64,000 nucleotides of DNA. Source: a virus. The notes beneath the pieces are model-generated. The model worked only from the letters and a program-made list of their open reading frames with translations. It had not been told where the DNA came from and ran no database searches. Below, piece after piece: positions 19,041-43,829 of the stretch. How positions within the stretch are numbered: position 1 is the first letter of the stretch; every line of letters begins with the position of its first letter. A program made the position numbers and the translations under genes. The stretch covers positions 72,227 through 136,226 of the IMG/VR virus record IMGVR_UViG_3300010400_000001, one strand, 5' to 3'.

Positions 19041-19523
19041 ATGCTCCACGGTAACGGGCTTGGTCGAGGCGGCGGCGGAGGCGGTCACGGTGGCGGTGGT
19101 CACGGTGGAGGCGGCGGTCACCACGGCGGTGGCGGAGGCGGGCATCATGGCGGTGGCGGTCACCACGGCGGCCATCGCGGTGGACGCGGGCGCGGCTTCG
19201 GTCCGACTGTGGTCGTTCAAGATGGCGGCGGATGGTGGGGTCCGGGCTGGTACGCCGATCCGCTCGTCGTCGAGCGGACGTGCGCGGTCGTCGACACGGA
19301 GGGTGTGTGCATCTGTCAGACGCTCAATCCGGACGGCACGTGCGCTCGGCCGCTCGTCGGCTGGGTTGGCGGTCGTCCCATCTACGGCATTGGAGAGGAA
19401 ACGCTCTCGGCATCGAGCGGAGCGACGAGCTGGATCGCGGGAGGCCTGCTCGTTGGCCTCGCGATTGGCGTCTATGCCCTGGATAAAAAGGGCCCTGGCG
19501 GCTCCAGGCGCGCCTCAGCTTGA
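19041..19523 (+). CDS. Gly/His-rich protein with Cys cluster and C-terminal TM
   Basis: GGGGHGGGGHH tract, CAVVD..CICQ..C and the WIAGGLLVGLAIGVYALDKK tail. Confidence 0.6.
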   Translation: MLHGNGLGRGGGGGGHGGGGHGGGGGHHGGGGGGHHGGGGHHGGHRGGRGRGFGPTVVVQDGGGWWGPGWYADPLVVERTCAVVDTEGVCICQTLNPDGTCARPLVGWVGGRPIYGIGEETLSASSGATSWIAGGLLVGLAIGVYALDKKGPGGSRRASA

Positions 19524-19546
19524 GTTAGACCGGATCCCCTTGTAGA

Positions 19547-20131
19547 GTGAGGGCTGCTGGGCGCTTCCCGACGCCAGGCATCGGGAAAGTTGTGCGCCAG
19601 CTGTCGAACCAGCCCCCATCGACCCTGTCGGGTTTCCGCGGACACCCGGACACGCTCCGGGCCATGGTTCGGGCCGTTCACGGTCAGCGAGGCGAGCAGA
19701 GCATGCTCGTGAAATCGGTGGCCGAGCACATTGTGCAGAAGGTGCAGCCGAAGGATTACCTCGGAGAGATCTTGGCGGTGAGGTACTGGGTGACCGAGCA
19801 CGTCAGGTACCTGAACGATCCGCTGCACGTCGAGGTCGTGAAGGATCCGCAACGCATCGTCGAAGAGATCGATGCACGCGGCCAAGCGGCGGAAGACTGC
19901 GACGGCATCGCGCTCCTCATCGGATGCCTCTGCCTTCTCATTGGCCGCGTGTGCGAGTTCGTCGTCGTCGGTTTCGGCGAGCCCGGGAGCTACAGCCACG
20001 TCTTCGTACGCGTAAAGGAACCCCGGAGCGGGAAATGGATCGTGTGCGATCCGGTTGCGGGCTCTGACGAGCGCGGCATGCTCGATCGCGTGACGACTTT
20101 TTACACGAAGAGTCTCGACGAGGCGGCGTAA
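19547..20131 (+). CDS. Transglutaminase-like cysteine protease
   Basis: EDCDGIALL (Cys), SHVFVRV (His) and WIVCDP (Asp) form the triad; the start may be downstream (19592 or 19664). Confidence 0.8.
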   Translation: MRAAGRFPTPGIGKVVRQLSNQPPSTLSGFRGHPDTLRAMVRAVHGQRGEQSMLVKSVAEHIVQKVQPKDYLGEILAVRYWVTEHVRYLNDPLHVEVVKDPQRIVEEIDARGQAAEDCDGIALLIGCLCLLIGRVCEFVVVGFGEPGSYSHVFVRVKEPRSGKWIVCDPVAGSDERGMLDRVTTFYTKSLDEAA

Positions 20132-21926
20132 TGTCGAATCGATTCAAAAATCTCCGCCCGAACTATCCGCTCTACGAGAGTCAGCCGATGTTCGGCGGCG
20201 CCCTGCCGACGATCGACGAGATCGGGCCGCCCGACATGCGGCCGAGCGGATTGAACCCGTACTACGACATGTACAGAGGGGCTCACGGGCGAAACTTTGC
20301 CGGCCTCGGAGGAAATACGATGAGTGCTGATCCAGGGATCCGCGACTATCCGAACGAGCTCAACATGCTCGCGGAGGCCGACGACGTGCAAGGAAACGGC
20401 GTCTTCGATCCTCACGGAAGCCAGGGCAACGTCCACGTCGACCAGGGAGTCTTCGCCGATCACGAAAACCTCCCGGGCTACATCGTGAAGGACCAGTACT
20501 ACGCGCCCTCTTCGGTCATCGACGCGACGACGGGAAACCCCGTCATGTACGTCCCGGGCGGCGCAGTGCCGATCGATCAGAACCAGCTCGACACGTACAG
20601 AGAGCGCCAGCTTCTCTGGGAATTGCAGCCAGGCCTCAGCCCCGAGAGCCTGCCCGAGCCGCCCGACGGGGAGACGTGGATCCCGCACGAGTACTCGTGG
20701 CCCGTGTCGGGCATCGGCGCAGATCCGCCGCCGGGCGCAGATCCCGCGTCGCTCCCGTCATCCGGCTCCAAGGTTCCTCTCATCGCGTCGCTCGGCATCG
20801 TCGGCGTCGCCGTCGGCATCTTCGTCGCCACCCTCATGAAGAAGTAACCACGCATGGACCACTACCAGAGCATCCTGCCCGAGTTCGACGTCTTCACGCC
20901 GCCGCCGGCGCCGCGCGAGCCGCCCGGCGGTCAGATGCTTGGCGCCGTGCGCCCGAAGAGAGCCGCGCGCTGGCTCATGAGCCCAGCGTCCGCTGTCTTT
21001 TCCGGTCTCGGGCAGGACGAGCCGGCCGCTGCGCTCGCTGTCGAGCCGCCGTCGACGGGGCACCTCGTCGTTGGTCTCCTCATCCTCACGGGCCTCGGCT
21101 ACCTCTGCTACGAGGTCGGGACAGCGATGGCGCCCGCCGGCTCGAAGAAGGTGCAGTGGGGCATCGTCGGCATTCCCGCGGGTCTTCTTGCTGGGCCGCT
21201 TGGCCTCGGCGCGATGGCCGTCTACGCGAATCACGGAAGGGGATAAGCGATGGGATGCGGCTGCGCTCAAGGTATCGGTGATTCGATGAACACGTACGAC
21301 GGGCCTGTCCCGTCGGGTGTTCCGAATCCGTTCGGTCCGATGCTGCACTCGTACCCGACCAGGTACCACGGCCCGATCTACACGCGGCCGATGTTCGGCT
21401 TTCCGTGGCGCGAGCGTCCGAACGACTTCGCGCGAGAGCGCGGGCTCGAGGGCCTCGGCGTGGAAGACGTCCCGTCCGGCACGAGTGACGGGCTCAAGGC
21501 TCTTCTCGTGCTCGGGCTCATCGGCGGCGTAGTCATCTTGACGAGGAATCTCTGATGTACCGAAAAAACGGTCACTCGATGCCAGAGCGCGAGGAAGGCG
21601 CTGCGTACTTGGGTCTCTTCGGAGACGAAGACGATCGCATCTGGGGCGTGAATCCAAGTCTTCTGACGCGCGGCTTCGGCGAAGGCGACGCGGCGACCGA
21701 GATACCGGAGGTGGCGATCGAGGGAAGCCCCGCGGCGCCGCTCTTTTACGAGACGCCGTTCTGGCGCGTGCTCTCGATCGCGGGAGCGGCGCTCGGCGCG
21801 TATCACGGATACAAGCGAAACGATTCTTTCGGGTGGGCCCTCGGCTGGGCCTTTCTCGGATCGCTCATTCCCGTCGTGGTGATCCCTGTCGCGTTCGCGC
21901 AAGGGATCGGGAAACCAAAGAGGTAA
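20131..21926 (+). CDS. Four consecutive small membrane/virion proteins (20131-20847, 20854-21246, 21250-21555, 21555-21926)
   Basis: Each has C-terminal TM helix/helices followed by K/R residues and a G-[LIF]-G motif; the genes abut one another. Confidence 0.65.
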
Positions 21927-41942: not shown

Positions 41943-43507
41943 TGTCCCGCTATGGGAGCGTCACGATTGCGGGGCCGTCGTCGCTCATTACCCGAGTCGT
42001 AGAGAGCGCAGATCCAGAAAACCTGGCAGCGCTCGTGAACCAGGAGATCGGCGCGCTCCCAGCGGGCTACGTCGTCGTCGCGCTCACGCTTGCTGGCGCC
42101 GGCGACGGCGCGCGCTTCTCGGTGACGATCGACGCGGGCGCCGCGGCTGACGTCGAGGGAGGCTTTCTCTCGCCGCCCACGGTCGTTTGCTACATCGGCA
42201 GCGACGTGGAGGCCCTCACGGCCGCTGCCGCTGCAGTACGGCCGACTGCGGGCGTCGTCGCCGATGAGCAGGTCGCTGGGGCGAGCAAGGGACTCCTCTT
42301 CATGGGCATGTTCGTGAGCGGACCGATCGCCGGATCGGCAACGGGGCCCACGGGTTCGACTGGCGCGACCGGGCCTACCGGCGCGACTGGGCCGACGGGG
42401 ATGCCCGGCGCCGCGGCGATGACGGGCGCGACGGGACCCACGGGCCCTACAGGCGCGACGGGGCCCACTGGGCCATCGGGTGCGGCATCGACGGTCACAG
42501 GCCCAACTGGGCCGACTGGTGCGACGGGCGCGGCCGGCGCGGCGGGCGTCACCGGCCCCACGGGTCCGACCGGATCGACAGGGATAACCGGCCCGACGGG
42601 TGTCACCGGTCCGAGCGGTGCGACGGGCCAGACGGGCGCTACCGGCAGCACGGGTACGACAGGGCCCACGGGAGCGCCATCGACGGTTACAGGCCCAACG
42701 GGGTCGACTGGAGCGACTGGAGCGACGGGCGTCACCGGACCCACGGGCAGCACGGGTGCGACTGGAGCAACCGGCGCAACGGGTGTCACCGGGCCCACCG
42801 GACCGACGGGCGCGACGGGCGCCACCGGGCCCACGGGCCCGACCGGTGCGACCGGTGCGACGGGTGCAACAGGCGCAACAGGTGTCACCGGCCCGACAGG
42901 CGCGACGGGGCCCACGGGCGTCACTGGATCGACGGGACCTACGGGCCCGACCGGCGTCACCGGACCCACTGGCGCGACGGGTCCGACAGGGCCCACGGGC
43001 ACCACGGGTCCTACCGGAACGGCAGCCGGAGGAACGCTTCAGGCAACAGTCGACTCCGCAAATAGCTTCGACACCAACGGCCACAGCGATGCGTTTCGCG
43101 TTGTTGTCGGTACGGACTTTGCGTACAGCGGCGACGCCGCGCTCGCACTGACAGCGTCGGGCGCGCTCCTCACGTACACTGGCCCCACGAGGCCGGCACT
43201 CGTTCTCGCCAGCATTTCCTACTTCGTCGGCGGCGCGCACACCGGACAGACGACGGCGATGGGCATCGCTCAGAACGGCGACTTGACCGGCGGCGCTATT
43301 TTCACCAATGCGTCGAGCGCGGCCGGCGTCCAAGCAGCCAACATGTCTCCCACGACGGCCGTTTCCACGGATGGAGAGGCGTCCGTCACCTGTCAGCGAC
43401 GCGTGACGCTTGCGAGCGGGGACACTCTCCGCGTCGTCGGCGCGAAGGAAACGGGGGATATCGATCTGACGATCACCGCGCTCAGCATGAGCGTGCTACT
43501 GCTTTAG
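41942..43507 (+). CDS. Collagen-like (G-X-T)n spike/fibre protein
   Basis: Long GPT/GAT/GVT triplet tract (about 42340-43020) between an N-terminal domain and a beta-rich C-terminal head, a BclA-like architecture. Confidence 0.85.
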
Positions 43508-43523
43508 GGAAAGGAGCCGCGCC

Positions 43524-43829
43524 GTGGAGCTCAGCGTCATTCCAGAAACCGAAGCCGATAGGCAGACGGCGTTCCTCGCGTTCTCCGCAATCCTCGGCGG
43601 CGGCGTCGTCGCTTACCAAGCGGGCCGATCGATTCGGGACGGAGATCTCTTCAAGACGGAGCCGTTCGAAGGCAACGCAGAGGTGGGTCTCGTCGCCACG
43701 GCAGCCGGCGTCGGTATGCTCGGTTTTGCTGCGAACGAAGCAGCGAAGTCCGTCGGCTGGAAACCCCTCATCCTCGGCAGCGTCGGTATCTTCGCGTTCG
43801 CGATCGTTGCGCGAGCGATCCGGAAGTAG
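43524..43829 (+). CDS. Small multi-TM membrane protein; last gene of the + strand block
   Basis: Three hydrophobic segments and an AAGGAG RBS; converges on the minus-strand block. Confidence 0.6.
   Translation: MELSVIPETEADRQTAFLAFSAILGGGVVAYQAGRSIRDGDLFKTEPFEGNAEVGLVATAAGVGMLGFAANEAAKSVGWKPLILGSVGIFAFAIVARAIRK

Follow-up and report, generated by a model that had tools for sequence, protein, structure and literature searches.

A candidate virion module that may belong to an undescribed lineage of large, tailless, membrane-containing bacterial viruses

Genomes of the Tectiviridae and Corticoviridae are 10–15 kb in size, and those of known members of the Helvetiavirae about 17–31 kb. The vertex fibre protein P5 of PRD1 has a collagen-like region, and the Nucleocytoviricota have many minor capsid proteins, some of them membrane-anchored. 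SSIP-1 is, to our knowledge, the largest membrane-containing icosahedral bacterial virus (~44 kb), and we know of no recognisable packaging ATPase in SPV1 (Portogloboviridae). SSIP-1 is described as an icosahedral phage that contains a membrane and has a circular dsDNA genome barely resembling GenBank entries, and PRD1 as assembling on a membrane vesicle (PMC6356626). The Helvetiavirae are defined by two major capsid proteins (MCPs), each with one vertical jelly roll (PMC10848233). [quoted passage not shown]

Here a gene block is described at ~13.9–43.8 kb of a 64-kb stretch of viral DNA (termed the window). On balance it is read as the virion-morphogenesis module of a dsDNA virus of ~136 kb whose host would be a peptidoglycan-bearing soil bacterium. 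With slightly better than even confidence, the module is assigned to a lineage, as yet undescribed, of large bacterial viruses that lack tails, contain a membrane and may condense their DNA without a packaging motor.

The genome record and its gene block

The window (64,000 nt) is the final part of a complete IMG/VR virus record of 136,226 bp, which agrees with a proposed genome size of at least 64 kb. The record has a 123-bp repeat at its ends (IMG/VR class DTR; CheckV 100%). Open reading frames were called with a crude in-house program that relies on GC3, in place of a standard gene finder, and about 140 of the ~197 in the 136-kb genome are without annotation. Replication genes in the window are:

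3185–4240 (+): DnaC-like loader (PHROG phrog_50, E-value = 5.2e-19)
4225–5664 (+): DnaB-like helicase (PHROG phrog_19, E-value = 1.7e-105)

A reading made from the sequence only had proposed a lambda-like initiator with DnaC and DnaB. The loader and helicase are present, at 3185–5664 (+ strand) and thus outside the segment 19041–43829 with which that reading dealt; PHROG and Pfam searches identify no lambda-like initiator. The lytic enzymes of the genome are an Amidase_2 + PG_binding_1 protein and an SLT enzyme. These, together with DnaB/DnaC, point to a bacterial host and lytic exit. Other genes include a recombinase domain, TnpB, glycosyltransferases and methyltransferases. An 868-aa protein at positions 46759–49365 of the genome (− strand) shows weak PHROG similarities to "virion structural protein" (E-value = 6.3e-7) and "tail protein" (E-value = 2.9e-4).

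The co-oriented block noticed at 19041–43829 is confirmed by the ORF map and translations, which place its start at ~12848 (+ strand). Tail-anchored (TA) membrane proteins in it were flagged by a filter for a hydrophobic C-terminal 18-residue window and a tail of ≤10 residues with K/R present and D/E absent. The genes, with two distant complete relatives termed G409 and G004, are as follows:

13908–14705 (+): 265-aa core protein at the head of the block; collinear tblastn matches in G409 and G004; no Pfam or PHROG match
14712–15263 (+): 183-aa very acidic, helix-rich protein (translation), possibly scaffold-like; no PHROG match
15260–17794 (+): 844-aa core protein (translation; conserved in G409 and G004) with an N-terminal domain, ~270-aa charged coiled coil, Pro/Gln-rich linker and C-terminal domain; no Pfam or PHROG match; candidate scaffold or tape-measure protein
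19041–19523 (+): Gly/His-rich TA protein (translation)
19547–20131 (+): transglutaminase-like (papain-fold) enzyme, core gene (Pfam Transglut_core, E-value = 0.0092, under cut-off)
20131–20847, 20854–21246, 21250–21555, 21555–21926 (+): four consecutive TA proteins, partly conserved in relatives
21934–22782, 22792–23436 (+): two conserved proteins of TA topology with PG_binding_1-like repeats (Pfam, sub-cut-off)
23621–24673, 24606–25034 (+): two TA proteins with uncertain starts (translation); 24690–25034 is kept in 17/21 related loci
25035–25589 (+): 184-aa soluble protein, 38–65% identity in 17/21 loci; no Pfam or PHROG match
25589–27499, ~27621–28700, 28697–29074 (+): three TA proteins with large N-terminal domains (translation, filter); no Pfam or PHROG match
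29156–31663 (+): Arg-rich "protamine-like" 835-aa protein (translation)
31839–32642 (+): protein A, 267 aa, predicted single jelly roll (AF2 model)
32737–33723 (+): protein B, 328 aa, predicted N-terminal 57-residue helix and jelly roll (AF2 model)
33734–34639 (+): protein C, 301 aa, soluble, beta-rich by composition; in 20/21 loci at 34–74%
34755–35552 (conserved, "D"), 35566–35829, 35830–36645 (+): TA proteins (translation, filter, relatives)
37094–38056 (N-terminal GMGAYF), 38059–38322 (two GxGEYF), 38336–38542 (+): TA proteins (translation, filter, motif scan)
38546–39145 (+): core protein combining a Cys-rich region with a J domain at the C-terminus (Pfam DnaJ, E-value = 2.5e-8, over cut-off)
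39145–41658 (+): small proteins, including TA proteins at 39655–40083, 40560–40853 and 41302–41658 (translation, filter)
41765–43507 (+): collagen-like GxT-repeat protein with C-terminal beta-rich domain (Pfam Collagen, E-value = 2.6e-31)
43524–43829 (+): 101-aa membrane protein with basic C-terminal tail, last gene of the block (translation, filter); no PHROG match

The transglutaminase-like protein has 233 homologs; among the 120 listed, 55 have a precomputed PF01841 assignment and two bear the name transglutaminase-like. It displays 47–57% identity in G409 and G004. Its real start may be further downstream, because the record's own call is 142 aa. This protein is a candidate maturation protease or cross-linker. 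The J-domain protein is kept in 19/21 loci and also in G409 and G004, and probably recruits host Hsp70. The Pfam match bears out the collagen-like sequence noted earlier, and the protein is a candidate surface or vertex fibre.

Membrane proteins and jelly-roll candidates

The filter flags 21 of 258 coding-like open reading frames in the whole 136-kb genome, 16 of them inside the window at 20131–43829; one (36579–36839) overlaps its neighbours and is probably spurious. Seven TA proteins missed by the filter were added from translations (19041–19523, 23621–24673, 24606–25034, 27483–28700, 38336–38542, 40560–40853, 41302–41658). The abundance of proteins ending in a transmembrane segment (TM) plus basic tail thus stands, with a number of ~22 in place of the earlier ~25. 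TA-like proteins make up 127/406 of the coding-like + frame open reading frames in 21 related loci vs 8/345 on the opposite strand; the TA enrichment is therefore a feature of the lineage.

For the peptidoglycan-binding domains proposed earlier, PG_binding_1 matches are seen in 21934–22782 (E-value = 3.4e-4, 21.2 bits) and 22792–23436 (E-value = 0.013, 16.2 bits), but both are under the Pfam cut-off of 23 bits and only suggestive. The "Gly-rich lipoprotein" at 19041–19523 has neither an N-terminal signal peptide nor a lipobox cysteine and is the Gly/His-rich TA protein listed above.

The TA proteins could also belong to a virus that is enveloped or pleomorphic and has no icosahedral shell around an internal membrane. 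They would then be N-out envelope proteins whose short basic cytoplasmic tails touch a protamine-condensed nucleoid, with matrix, spike or receptor-binding roles for A, B and C. This is unlikely, though less so than the other rival readings below. Under the positive-inside rule, basic residues right behind the TM suit C-in/N-out proteins, such that TA topology does not establish an internal membrane, and PG-binding-like domains would be useful on the outer face of a particle. However, the translation of none of the TA proteins shows an N-terminal signal peptide, and their N-terminal domains, of up to 636 aa, would be hard to export in its absence.

Proteins A, B and C correspond to three soluble beta-rich proteins pointed out from the sequence, and structure prediction, where other folds would have spoken against the earlier reading, gives jelly rolls for two of the three, A and B. 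The AF2 model of A (pLDDT 76.8, pTM 0.78) has eight strands, and Foldseek and VIA return jelly-roll folds only. The top Foldseek row is the SPV1 capsid (E-value = 0.033; Z 5.2–5.5 over 127–135 residues in VIA). The best VIA rows are TNF/C1q/CBM-type jelly rolls, which are typical of binding heads and would suit an enveloped particle. On the other hand, A is the most conserved protein of the module (57–93% across the lineage), and conservation this high is seen more typically in lattice proteins than in receptor-binding heads. Relatives of A carry insertions of 105–225 aa exactly at a low-confidence loop of the model (165–180), as may be expected of a surface-exposed loop.

The AF2 model of B is of middling quality (pLDDT 66.9, pTM 0.54). 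Its matches are all weak and are mostly capsid proteins of membrane-containing viruses, with PHM also present. The best rows (Z/aligned residues) are SGIV MCP (6.5/151), SH1 (6.5/114), EhV-201 (6.3/136) and SPV1 (6.3/139), followed by P23-77 VP17 (6.2/143), PBCV-1 (6.0–6.5), HHIV-2 (5.8) and HCIV-1 (5.5). That these are mostly vertical jelly-roll capsid proteins argues against an enveloped particle. All structural matches of A and B are weak (Z ≤6.7, Foldseek E-value ≥0.0067), and a Z below 8 can mean a mere common arrangement, according to the structure-comparison tool's own note; non-capsid jelly rolls among the matches are TNF/C1q-like fibre heads, CBMs, lambda gpJ domains and PHM. On these models, A and B are each candidates for a capsid-shell protein. 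Protein C has no Pfam, PHROG or PDB sequence match and no profile similarity to A or B.

The translation of 29156–31663 bears out a protamine-like protein: a basic domain of ~550 aa is followed by hydrophobic TM-like segments and three G[LMV]GEYF motifs. A protein with basic domain, TM and motif lies directly upstream of A in 16/21 loci. The GxGEYF-type motif occurs six times in the genome, always within the module, and in the 21 related loci 71 times in + frames vs 0 in − frames. Both the motif, G[LMIV]G[AEQ][YF][FY], and the conservation of this protein just upstream of A are new here. We propose that the protein is a DNA-condensing, membrane-anchored linker.

Packaging genes and distribution of the lineage

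TerL_ATPase, Terminase_6N, Phage_portal and Phage_capsid profiles each give no match on the virus's own complete genome. Relatives profiled for packaging and capsid genes are 124–182 kb in size; Terminase_6N and TerL_ATPase each match 0/5 of them, among which are DTR genomes of 138 and 179 kb, and FtsK_SpoIIIE and Pox_A32 match over cut-off in 0/5 genomes. HK97 capsid and portal were searched with one Pfam family each plus PHROG/Pfam scans of single open reading frames, which could miss strongly diverged forms. Across all six frames, a canonical Walker-A motif is present only in the ComM-like, DnaC and DnaB proteins, and scanning for the looser pattern G[KR][ST] turns up no further convincing P-loop protein. 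The lack of terminase, portal, HK97 capsid and packaging ATPase noted in the window thus extends over the whole 136-kb genome. A check of the rest of the contig, set beforehand as a refuting test, found no terminase, portal, HK97-capsid, FtsK or A32 profile match in this genome and four to five relatives. We know of no precedent among bacterial viruses for packaging 136 kb without a motor. That neither a motor (profile and P-loop scans) nor a scaffold or penton protein is identified would also fit an enveloped virus. No lipid-metabolism or membrane-scission gene is identified in the genome.

A highly divergent tailed phage (Caudoviricetes), with hallmark genes beyond the reach of profiles and the membrane block as an accessory or host-takeover module, is very improbable. 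Large tailed phages typically have genomes of this size and a DTR, and tailed phages can have collagen-like fibres; the ~140 unannotated open reading frames, the 868-aa protein with its weak PHROG matches, and the Uroviricota label that Atlas automatic taxonomy puts on neighbouring clusters point the same way. Against it, the TerL profile has no match in six genomes (own and relatives) and the P-loop proteins are limited to the three named. Three complete genomes share no core gene above 300 aa without known function besides the coiled-coil 844-aa protein, and none of terminase or portal size. PHROG matches 0/10 module proteins, and the most conserved structural-looking proteins are predicted jelly rolls, not HK97 folds.

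Metagenomic homologs (E-value ≤1e-3) number 658 for A and 716 for B, many on contigs in the ~100–180 kb range, 107–136 kb being common lengths, and 17 IMG/VR loci are on contigs of 38–182 kb. Neither protein is found in cultured phages, PHROGs or plasmids. Four MAG bins hold the capsid candidate (two Pirellulales, one Pseudomonadota, one Pseudomonadales), which leaves the suggested Myxococcota-like host unsupported.

A large plasmid or other mobile element, in which the block is a cell-envelope or vesicle-forming apparatus, is very improbable. The circular-like assembly, the absence of a recognised capsid family, and DnaB/DnaC, recombinase domain, TnpB, glycosyltransferases and methyltransferases, all common on plasmids, would suit it. 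But the genome-wide P-loop scan shows no conjugation ATPase and no ParA-type partition ATPase, the genome encodes an endolysin-type amidase and SLT, and IMG/VR classes it as viral. Also, A has no match in 72,556 plasmid records and is present in 1/401 genomes of the order of one A-bearing MAG, the one being that MAG itself. The reading that we favour by a little is that of a widespread, undescribed lineage with genomes of ~110–180 kb which are not tailed phages.

Proposed virion and comparison with known viruses

The idea of a tailless membrane virus holds in part, on the absent packaging and tail genes and the predicted jelly rolls; the lambda-like initiator, Myxococcota host and lipoprotein are not supported. 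In the proposed virion, A and B, perhaps with C, would form the protein shell, possibly icosahedral, and the ~22 TA proteins would fill a lipid membrane, with their N-terminal domains either in the space that separates it from the shell or on the surface. Many TA proteins have G[LMIV]G or GxGEYF motifs, which may be docking or processing sites. The Arg-rich domain of the 835-aa protein would condense the genome, while its hydrophobic segments anchor in the membrane and its GEYF repeats reach the shell. DNA would be enclosed as membrane and shell assemble, not pumped by an ATPase. The transglutaminase-like enzyme and J-domain protein may help in maturation and assembly, and the collagen-like protein may form a fibre. 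The virus is probably a large bacterial virus of a type so far undescribed.

Both A and B repeatedly match capsid chains of SPV1, though weakly, at Z 5.2–6.3 only. SPV1 has an archaeal host and a 20-kb genome, in contrast to 136 kb, bacterial-type DnaB/DnaC and peptidoglycan hydrolases here; there is no sequence similarity, and the ~800-aa basic protein of the module includes TM segments and GEYF repeats.

The Helvetiavirae (P23-77, SH1, HHIV-2, HCIV-1; sphaerolipovirus-like) resemble the module in two adjoining genes for capsid candidates, here predicted single jelly rolls, and in many small membrane proteins; B weakly matches all four (Z 5.5–6.5). Here, however, no FtsK-HerA-type packaging ATPase and no sequence or profile similarity is found, and the genome is several-fold larger.

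Tectiviridae and Corticoviridae (PRD1, PM2) and other Bamfordvirae are tailless with an internal membrane and many virus-coded small membrane proteins, traits that the genes suggest here, and have membrane-associated lytic or peptidoglycan-directed functions. They differ in having an MCP with a double jelly roll and a packaging ATPase, which in PRD1 is P9 (PMC6356626), compared with predicted single jelly rolls and no such ATPase found here.

SSIP-1 is likened by description only; the genome here is about three times larger, and no SSIP-1 structure is among the structural matches of A and B.

The Nucleocytoviricota (PBCV-1, SGIV, EhV-201, ASFV) are of a comparable genome size class and have features proposed for the virus here, namely an inner membrane, basic DNA-condensing proteins and collagen-like surface fibres, and B weakly matches their MCP jelly rolls. 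They infect eukaryotes and encode a double jelly-roll MCP, an A32 ATPase and polymerases of their own; none of the three is found here.

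Genome record and composition of the gene block

The virus genome is a single contig of 136,226 bp, with the window at its bases 72227–136226. Its first 123 bases are identical to its last 123 bases, and it is classed in IMG/VR as a virus with direct terminal repeats and a CheckV completeness of 100%. The G+C content is 63.4%. Gene coordinates were obtained with our own crude GC3-based ORF picker and by reading of the translations, and start positions are approximate. The stop codons of 194 crude genes are TGA (114), TAG (48) and TAA (32); given this ordinary usage, the standard code applies to the genome. 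Outside the window, at genome positions 41323–41552 (L003:3323–3552, L003 being a piece of the same genome), ARAGORN predicts two adjacent tRNAs. The first (89 nt, anticodon CTA) is labelled tRNA-Pyl and is amber-suppressor-like, and the second is a tRNA-Ile with the unusual anticodon AAT. The CTA anticodon raised the question of amber-suppressor recoding, which was rejected because TAG is a common stop, as counted here.

The co-oriented plus strand block proposed in the sequence-only reading is real and extends over about 12848–43829. The main open reading frames referred to below are as follows (window coordinates).

29156–31663, plus strand, Arg-rich, protamine-like protein of 835 aa
31839–32642, plus strand, protein A, soluble and beta-rich, capsid-shell candidate
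32737–33723, plus strand, protein B, soluble and beta-rich, capsid-shell candidate
33734–34639, plus strand, protein C, soluble and beta-rich

The translation displays the Arg-rich protein that had been termed protamine-like, and the three soluble beta-rich proteins are present as described, flanked by the Arg-rich protein and by tail-anchored (TA) membrane proteins. The collagen fibre of the sequence-only reading corresponds to a collagen-like protein (Pfam Collagen, E = 2.6e-31). Peptidoglycan-binding domains do give Pfam matches, but these lie below the Pfam cut-off, and the “Gly-rich lipoprotein” has neither a signal peptide nor a lipobox in its sequence.

About 25 TA proteins had been claimed; their concentration in the block is borne out, but the number is closer to 22. 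Screened automatically for a C-terminal hydrophobic stretch with a short K/R tail behind it, the 258 coding-like ORFs of the genome give 21 candidates. Of these, 16 fall within window positions 20131–43829, one of them probably spurious, and seven further TA proteins are plain from the translations, which gives a total of about 22 in the block. Just upstream of the region followed up here, a 273-aa protein (17836–18657, plus strand) has a conserved-looking segment, SHEILEMLADP, and no match in Pfam or PHROG.

Search for tailed-phage and packaging genes

PHROG and Pfam scans covered 69 different ORFs, some of which were run against both libraries. No terminase, portal, capsid, tail or packaging ATPase was found among these 69. 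The scans identified DnaC, DnaB and a thymidylate-synthase-like protein, a ComM/Mg-chelatase-type AAA+ protein, glycosyltransferases and one methyltransferase, a TnpB-like protein and an FkbM methyltransferase. They also show an SLT transglycosylase, an endolysin-type enzyme (Amidase_2 and PG_binding_1), a GDSL domain, RuvC, a J-domain protein, a nucleotide-kinase-like protein and a NUDIX protein. A single “portal” PHROG match (12848–13318) proved to be 43 residues of NUDIX motif within a NUDIX protein of 156 aa.

HK97-fold capsid, portal and terminase genes elsewhere on the contig had been named beforehand as what would refute the sequence-only reading, and whole-genome profile searches, with one family each for capsid and portal, are negative. 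In six-frame profile searches TerL_ATPase and Terminase_6N have no match in the genome itself or in any of five relatives, two of which are complete with direct terminal repeats (138 and 179 kb). FtsK_SpoIIIE and Pox_A32 give nothing above cut-off in the genome and four relatives (0 of 5 genomes). The HK97-fold capsid and the portal, each represented genome-wide by a single family (Pfam Phage_capsid and Phage_portal, respectively), are without a six-frame match in the genome. None of ten module proteins matches a PHROG, and the core genes common to the distant complete relatives include no terminase candidate.

The only convincing P-loops in a six-frame scan for [AG]xxxxGK[ST] are those of ComM, DnaC and DnaB; a looser P-loop scan gives no further convincing one, and there is no spare Walker-A protein. 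The ComM/YifB-type protein (genome positions 2656–4341, plus strand, on the piece L001) is a full-length Mg-chelatase-like AAA+ protein (Mg_chelatase E = 7.1e-64) that is found also in G409, a distant complete relative, and not in a second one, G004. A role as packaging ATPase was weighed for it and dismissed: the Mg_chelatase/ChlI match spans its whole length, and it is missing from G004.

To our knowledge, the large bacterial viruses described so far are all tailed phages. That the present genome is that of a very divergent tailed phage, to be set against the searches for terminase and for P-loop proteins, is hardly probable.

Several other loci deserve description. In the window, positions 52978–54786 (minus strand) encode a 602-aa TnpB/IS605 OrfB-like protein (Cas12f1-like TNB domain, E = 2.1e-14, and HTH_OrfB_IS605), i.e. 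a relative of transposon-type RNA-guided nucleases within a virus genome; the 385-aa ORF after it (54783–55940, minus strand) has no family match. Outside the window, genome positions 13588–17337 (on L001, plus strand) encode a 1249-aa protein in which a tyrosine-recombinase/integrase domain occupies only residues 224–541 (phrog_1, E = 1.7e-24). Roughly 900 residues lie outside this domain, and the protein was not found in G409 or G004. Two proteins of ~860 aa are encoded on the minus strand at genome positions 43027–45597 and 46759–49365 (L003:5027–7597 and L003:8759–11365). One has a GDSL lipase/esterase domain, and the other is weakly matched by PHROGs annotated as “virion structural protein” and as “tail protein”. 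These two may be receptor-binding or polysaccharide-degrading proteins of the particle, coded away from the main module.

Candidate shell proteins, shared motif and conserved core

The model of A (267 aa; alignment of 64 sequences) has eight strands, with pLDDT 76.8 and pTM 0.78. Its Foldseek listing consists nearly entirely of viral jelly-roll capsids, none of them significant, with Sulfolobus polyhedral virus 1 (SPV1) at the top (E = 0.033). VIA-align gives Z of at most 6.7, to jelly rolls of varied kinds (a virus protrusion domain, TNF/C1q, CBM35), and Z of 5.2–5.5 over 127–135 residues to SPV1. It should be noted that by the calibration of VIA-align, a Z under 8 may reflect just a common arrangement.

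The model of B (59 sequences; pLDDT 66.9, pTM 0.54) has a helix at residues 4–60 followed by a beta sandwich. Its best VIA-align rows are the major capsid protein (MCP) of SGIV (Z = 6.5, 151 residues aligned), SH1 (6.5, 114) and PBCV-1 (6.0–6.5), followed by EhV-201 (6.3, 136), P23-77 VP17 (6.2, 143), HHIV-2 (5.8) and HCIV-1 (5.5). The comparison with SPV1 shows Z of 6.1–6.3 (139 aligned) and a Foldseek E-value of 0.007. Matches other than capsids are also present, e.g. peptidylglycine monooxygenase (6.5, 117), nucleoplasmin and a lambda gpJ domain. No Foldseek match with E of 0.001 or less was obtained for A (PDB, BFVD) or B (PDB). From these predicted models we read A and B as jelly rolls and not as HK97 folds, with kinship to any capsid family unproven.

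Searched as profiles against the sequences of the PDB, A and C yield nothing meaningful and show no sequence similarity to the SPV1 shell proteins. A, B and C are not detectable paralogues, as hhalign gives a probability of <1% for each pair. Some relatives of A carry insertions of 105–225 residues between residues 175 and 180, which is the floppy loop of the model; this fits a surface-exposed loop. Among the insertions of three relatives (P0242, P0244 and P0269), one is rich in Cys and another is a long repeat-like domain rich in Gly, Thr and Ala, which suggests a decorated surface loop of the capsid candidate.

In 35 module proteins the tripeptide G[LMIV]G is counted 50 times, compared with 23 ± 4.7 in 500 shuffles (maximum 39), and is frequently close to the N-terminus. 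A longer form, G[LMIV]G[AEQ][YF][FY], is found six times in the whole genome, and all six are inside the module.

Occurrences of G[LMIV]G[AEQ][YF][FY] in the window (plus strand)
31199–31486, three copies, C-terminal end of the Arg-rich protein
37103–37120, one copy, N-terminus of the protein at 37094–38056
38149–38196, two copies, in the protein at 38059–38322

In 21 related loci, where copies lie around position 9300–9700, the longer motif is present 71 times in plus frames and 0 times in minus frames. It is typically GMGEYF, often in 2–3 copies, and is common to the Arg-rich protein and several TA proteins. It may serve for docking or for processing. Directly upstream of A, 16 of the 21 loci encode a protein in which a basic domain (350–600 residues, R+K 20%–59%) is followed by one or two hydrophobic segments and then by GxGEYF-type motifs.

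At E of 1e-3 or less, A has 658 and B 716 homologs in a collection of 5.8 billion proteins, all unnamed or “hypothetical”, on contigs of up to 134–136 kb. A search with a profile of A finds 119 clusters at 50% identity, and divergent members of 194–252 aa are also on contigs of 72–138 kb. In IMG/VR, 17 related loci occur, their contigs measuring 38–182 kb. Near-identical DNA is present in soil and landfill metagenomes, with no RNA dataset among the sequencing runs listed. A is also found on four MAG contigs (two Pirellulales, one Pseudomonadota, one Pseudomonadales). There is no host signal: among 401 genomes of the order of one MAG that holds A, only that MAG itself has it. A tblastn search with A gave no match in 50,697 phage records or 72,556 plasmid records. 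A non-viral element, to be weighed against the IMG/VR classification and the lack of a match in the plasmid records, is a most improbable source of these loci.

Gene order about A is conserved among relatives. Of 197 crude ORFs, 54 match at least one of the two distant complete genomes, in which A is about 57%–59% identical. The shared core includes DnaC, DnaB, several glycosyltransferases, the ORF at 13908–14705, an 844-aa coiled-coil protein, a transglutaminase-like enzyme, the J-domain protein, several TA proteins, the Arg-rich protein, A, B, C and the TA protein following C. The transglutaminase-like enzyme has 233 homologs, with PF01841 on 55 among the 120 listed, and a phmmer search of the PDB gave nothing. 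For C and the 844-aa protein, the Atlas yields unnamed viral clusters only, with TM-scores of 0.31 or less. C homologs in three related loci (L020 and L021, about 12266–13291; L018, about 12402–13220) have an in-frame stop within the stretch picked, which could come from a misplaced start, from a frameshift or from a damaged gene.

No description of the lineage was found in the full-text literature searched; subscription journals and supplementary files lay outside that search, and a prior description is possible. What is new here is the G[LMIV]G enrichment, the longer motif, the basic/transmembrane/motif protein upstream of A, and the transglutaminase-like core gene.

Proposed virion and comparison with known virus groups

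The simplest account of the block, and one we hold somewhat probable, is that it is the virion module of a tailless virus, with many virus-coded proteins in its membrane, a shell of jelly-roll proteins and a genome condensed by a protamine-like protein. An enveloped virus of non-icosahedral architecture, to be considered beside the basic tails of the TA proteins on the one hand and the mostly capsid matches of B on the other, appears unlikely.

Beyond the tailless virion module itself, a wider proposal is put forward tentatively, as possible and still doubtful: a new lineage, at the level of a realm, of large soil bacterial viruses (110–180 kb) with a membrane-containing single-jelly-roll particle. 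The shell would be formed by proteins with a single jelly roll and without sequence relationship to any capsid protein known. The genome would be enclosed without a packaging motor, by condensation on a giant membrane-anchored protamine-like protein, with this protein and a dozen further membrane proteins all plugging into the shell by a common G-x-G-E-Y-F peptide.

The tailless bacterial viruses with a membrane that are known so far have genomes of about 10–44 kb and rely on a dedicated ATPase for packaging. A lineage of 110–180 kb, widespread in soil, that lacks terminase, portal and FtsK-type ATPase and instead has at its core jelly-roll proteins, some 22 membrane proteins and a protamine-like protein anchored in the membrane would broaden the known architectures of bacterial viruses and extend the range of genome-encapsidation mechanisms. 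It would also bear on the origin of jelly-roll capsids. A, B, the basic/transmembrane/GEYF protein and the transglutaminase-like enzyme would provide a marker set for annotation of a group now labelled merely “hypothetical”.

In Caudoviricetes the terminase large subunit combines a P-loop ATPase and a nuclease; here it was not found, and the three Walker-A proteins are all assigned. By the definitions in PMC10848233, the lineage cannot be filed under Bamfordvirae or Helvetiavirae, because an FtsK-HerA ATPase is absent and no double jelly-roll (DJR) protein is seen in the models. Bamfordvirae have an FtsK-HerA superfamily ATPase for packaging, not found here, and a DJR capsid protein (Tectiviridae, Corticoviridae, Autolykiviridae and others). 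The models of A and B show one jelly roll each. DJR MCPs among the structural matches of A and B are weak and one-domain only.

Helvetiavirae have two MCPs with a single vertical jelly roll each; for the adjacent genes A and B, single jelly rolls are predicted. The matches of B to the Helvetiavirae MCPs of SH1, P23-77, HHIV-2 and HCIV-1 (Z = 5.5–6.5) are below a convincing level. The packaging ATPase that lies beside the MCP genes in Helvetiavirae was not found here.

In Portogloboviridae, the SPV1 shell is built of the single-jelly-roll proteins VP4 and VP10, and A and B show weak matches to SPV1 chains. SPV1 has a nucleoprotein core within a lipid layer; its possible counterpart here is the conserved Arg-rich membrane-anchored protein. 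If the proposal is true, the lineage would be a bacterial counterpart to the archaeal portogloboviruses, with a genome seven times larger.
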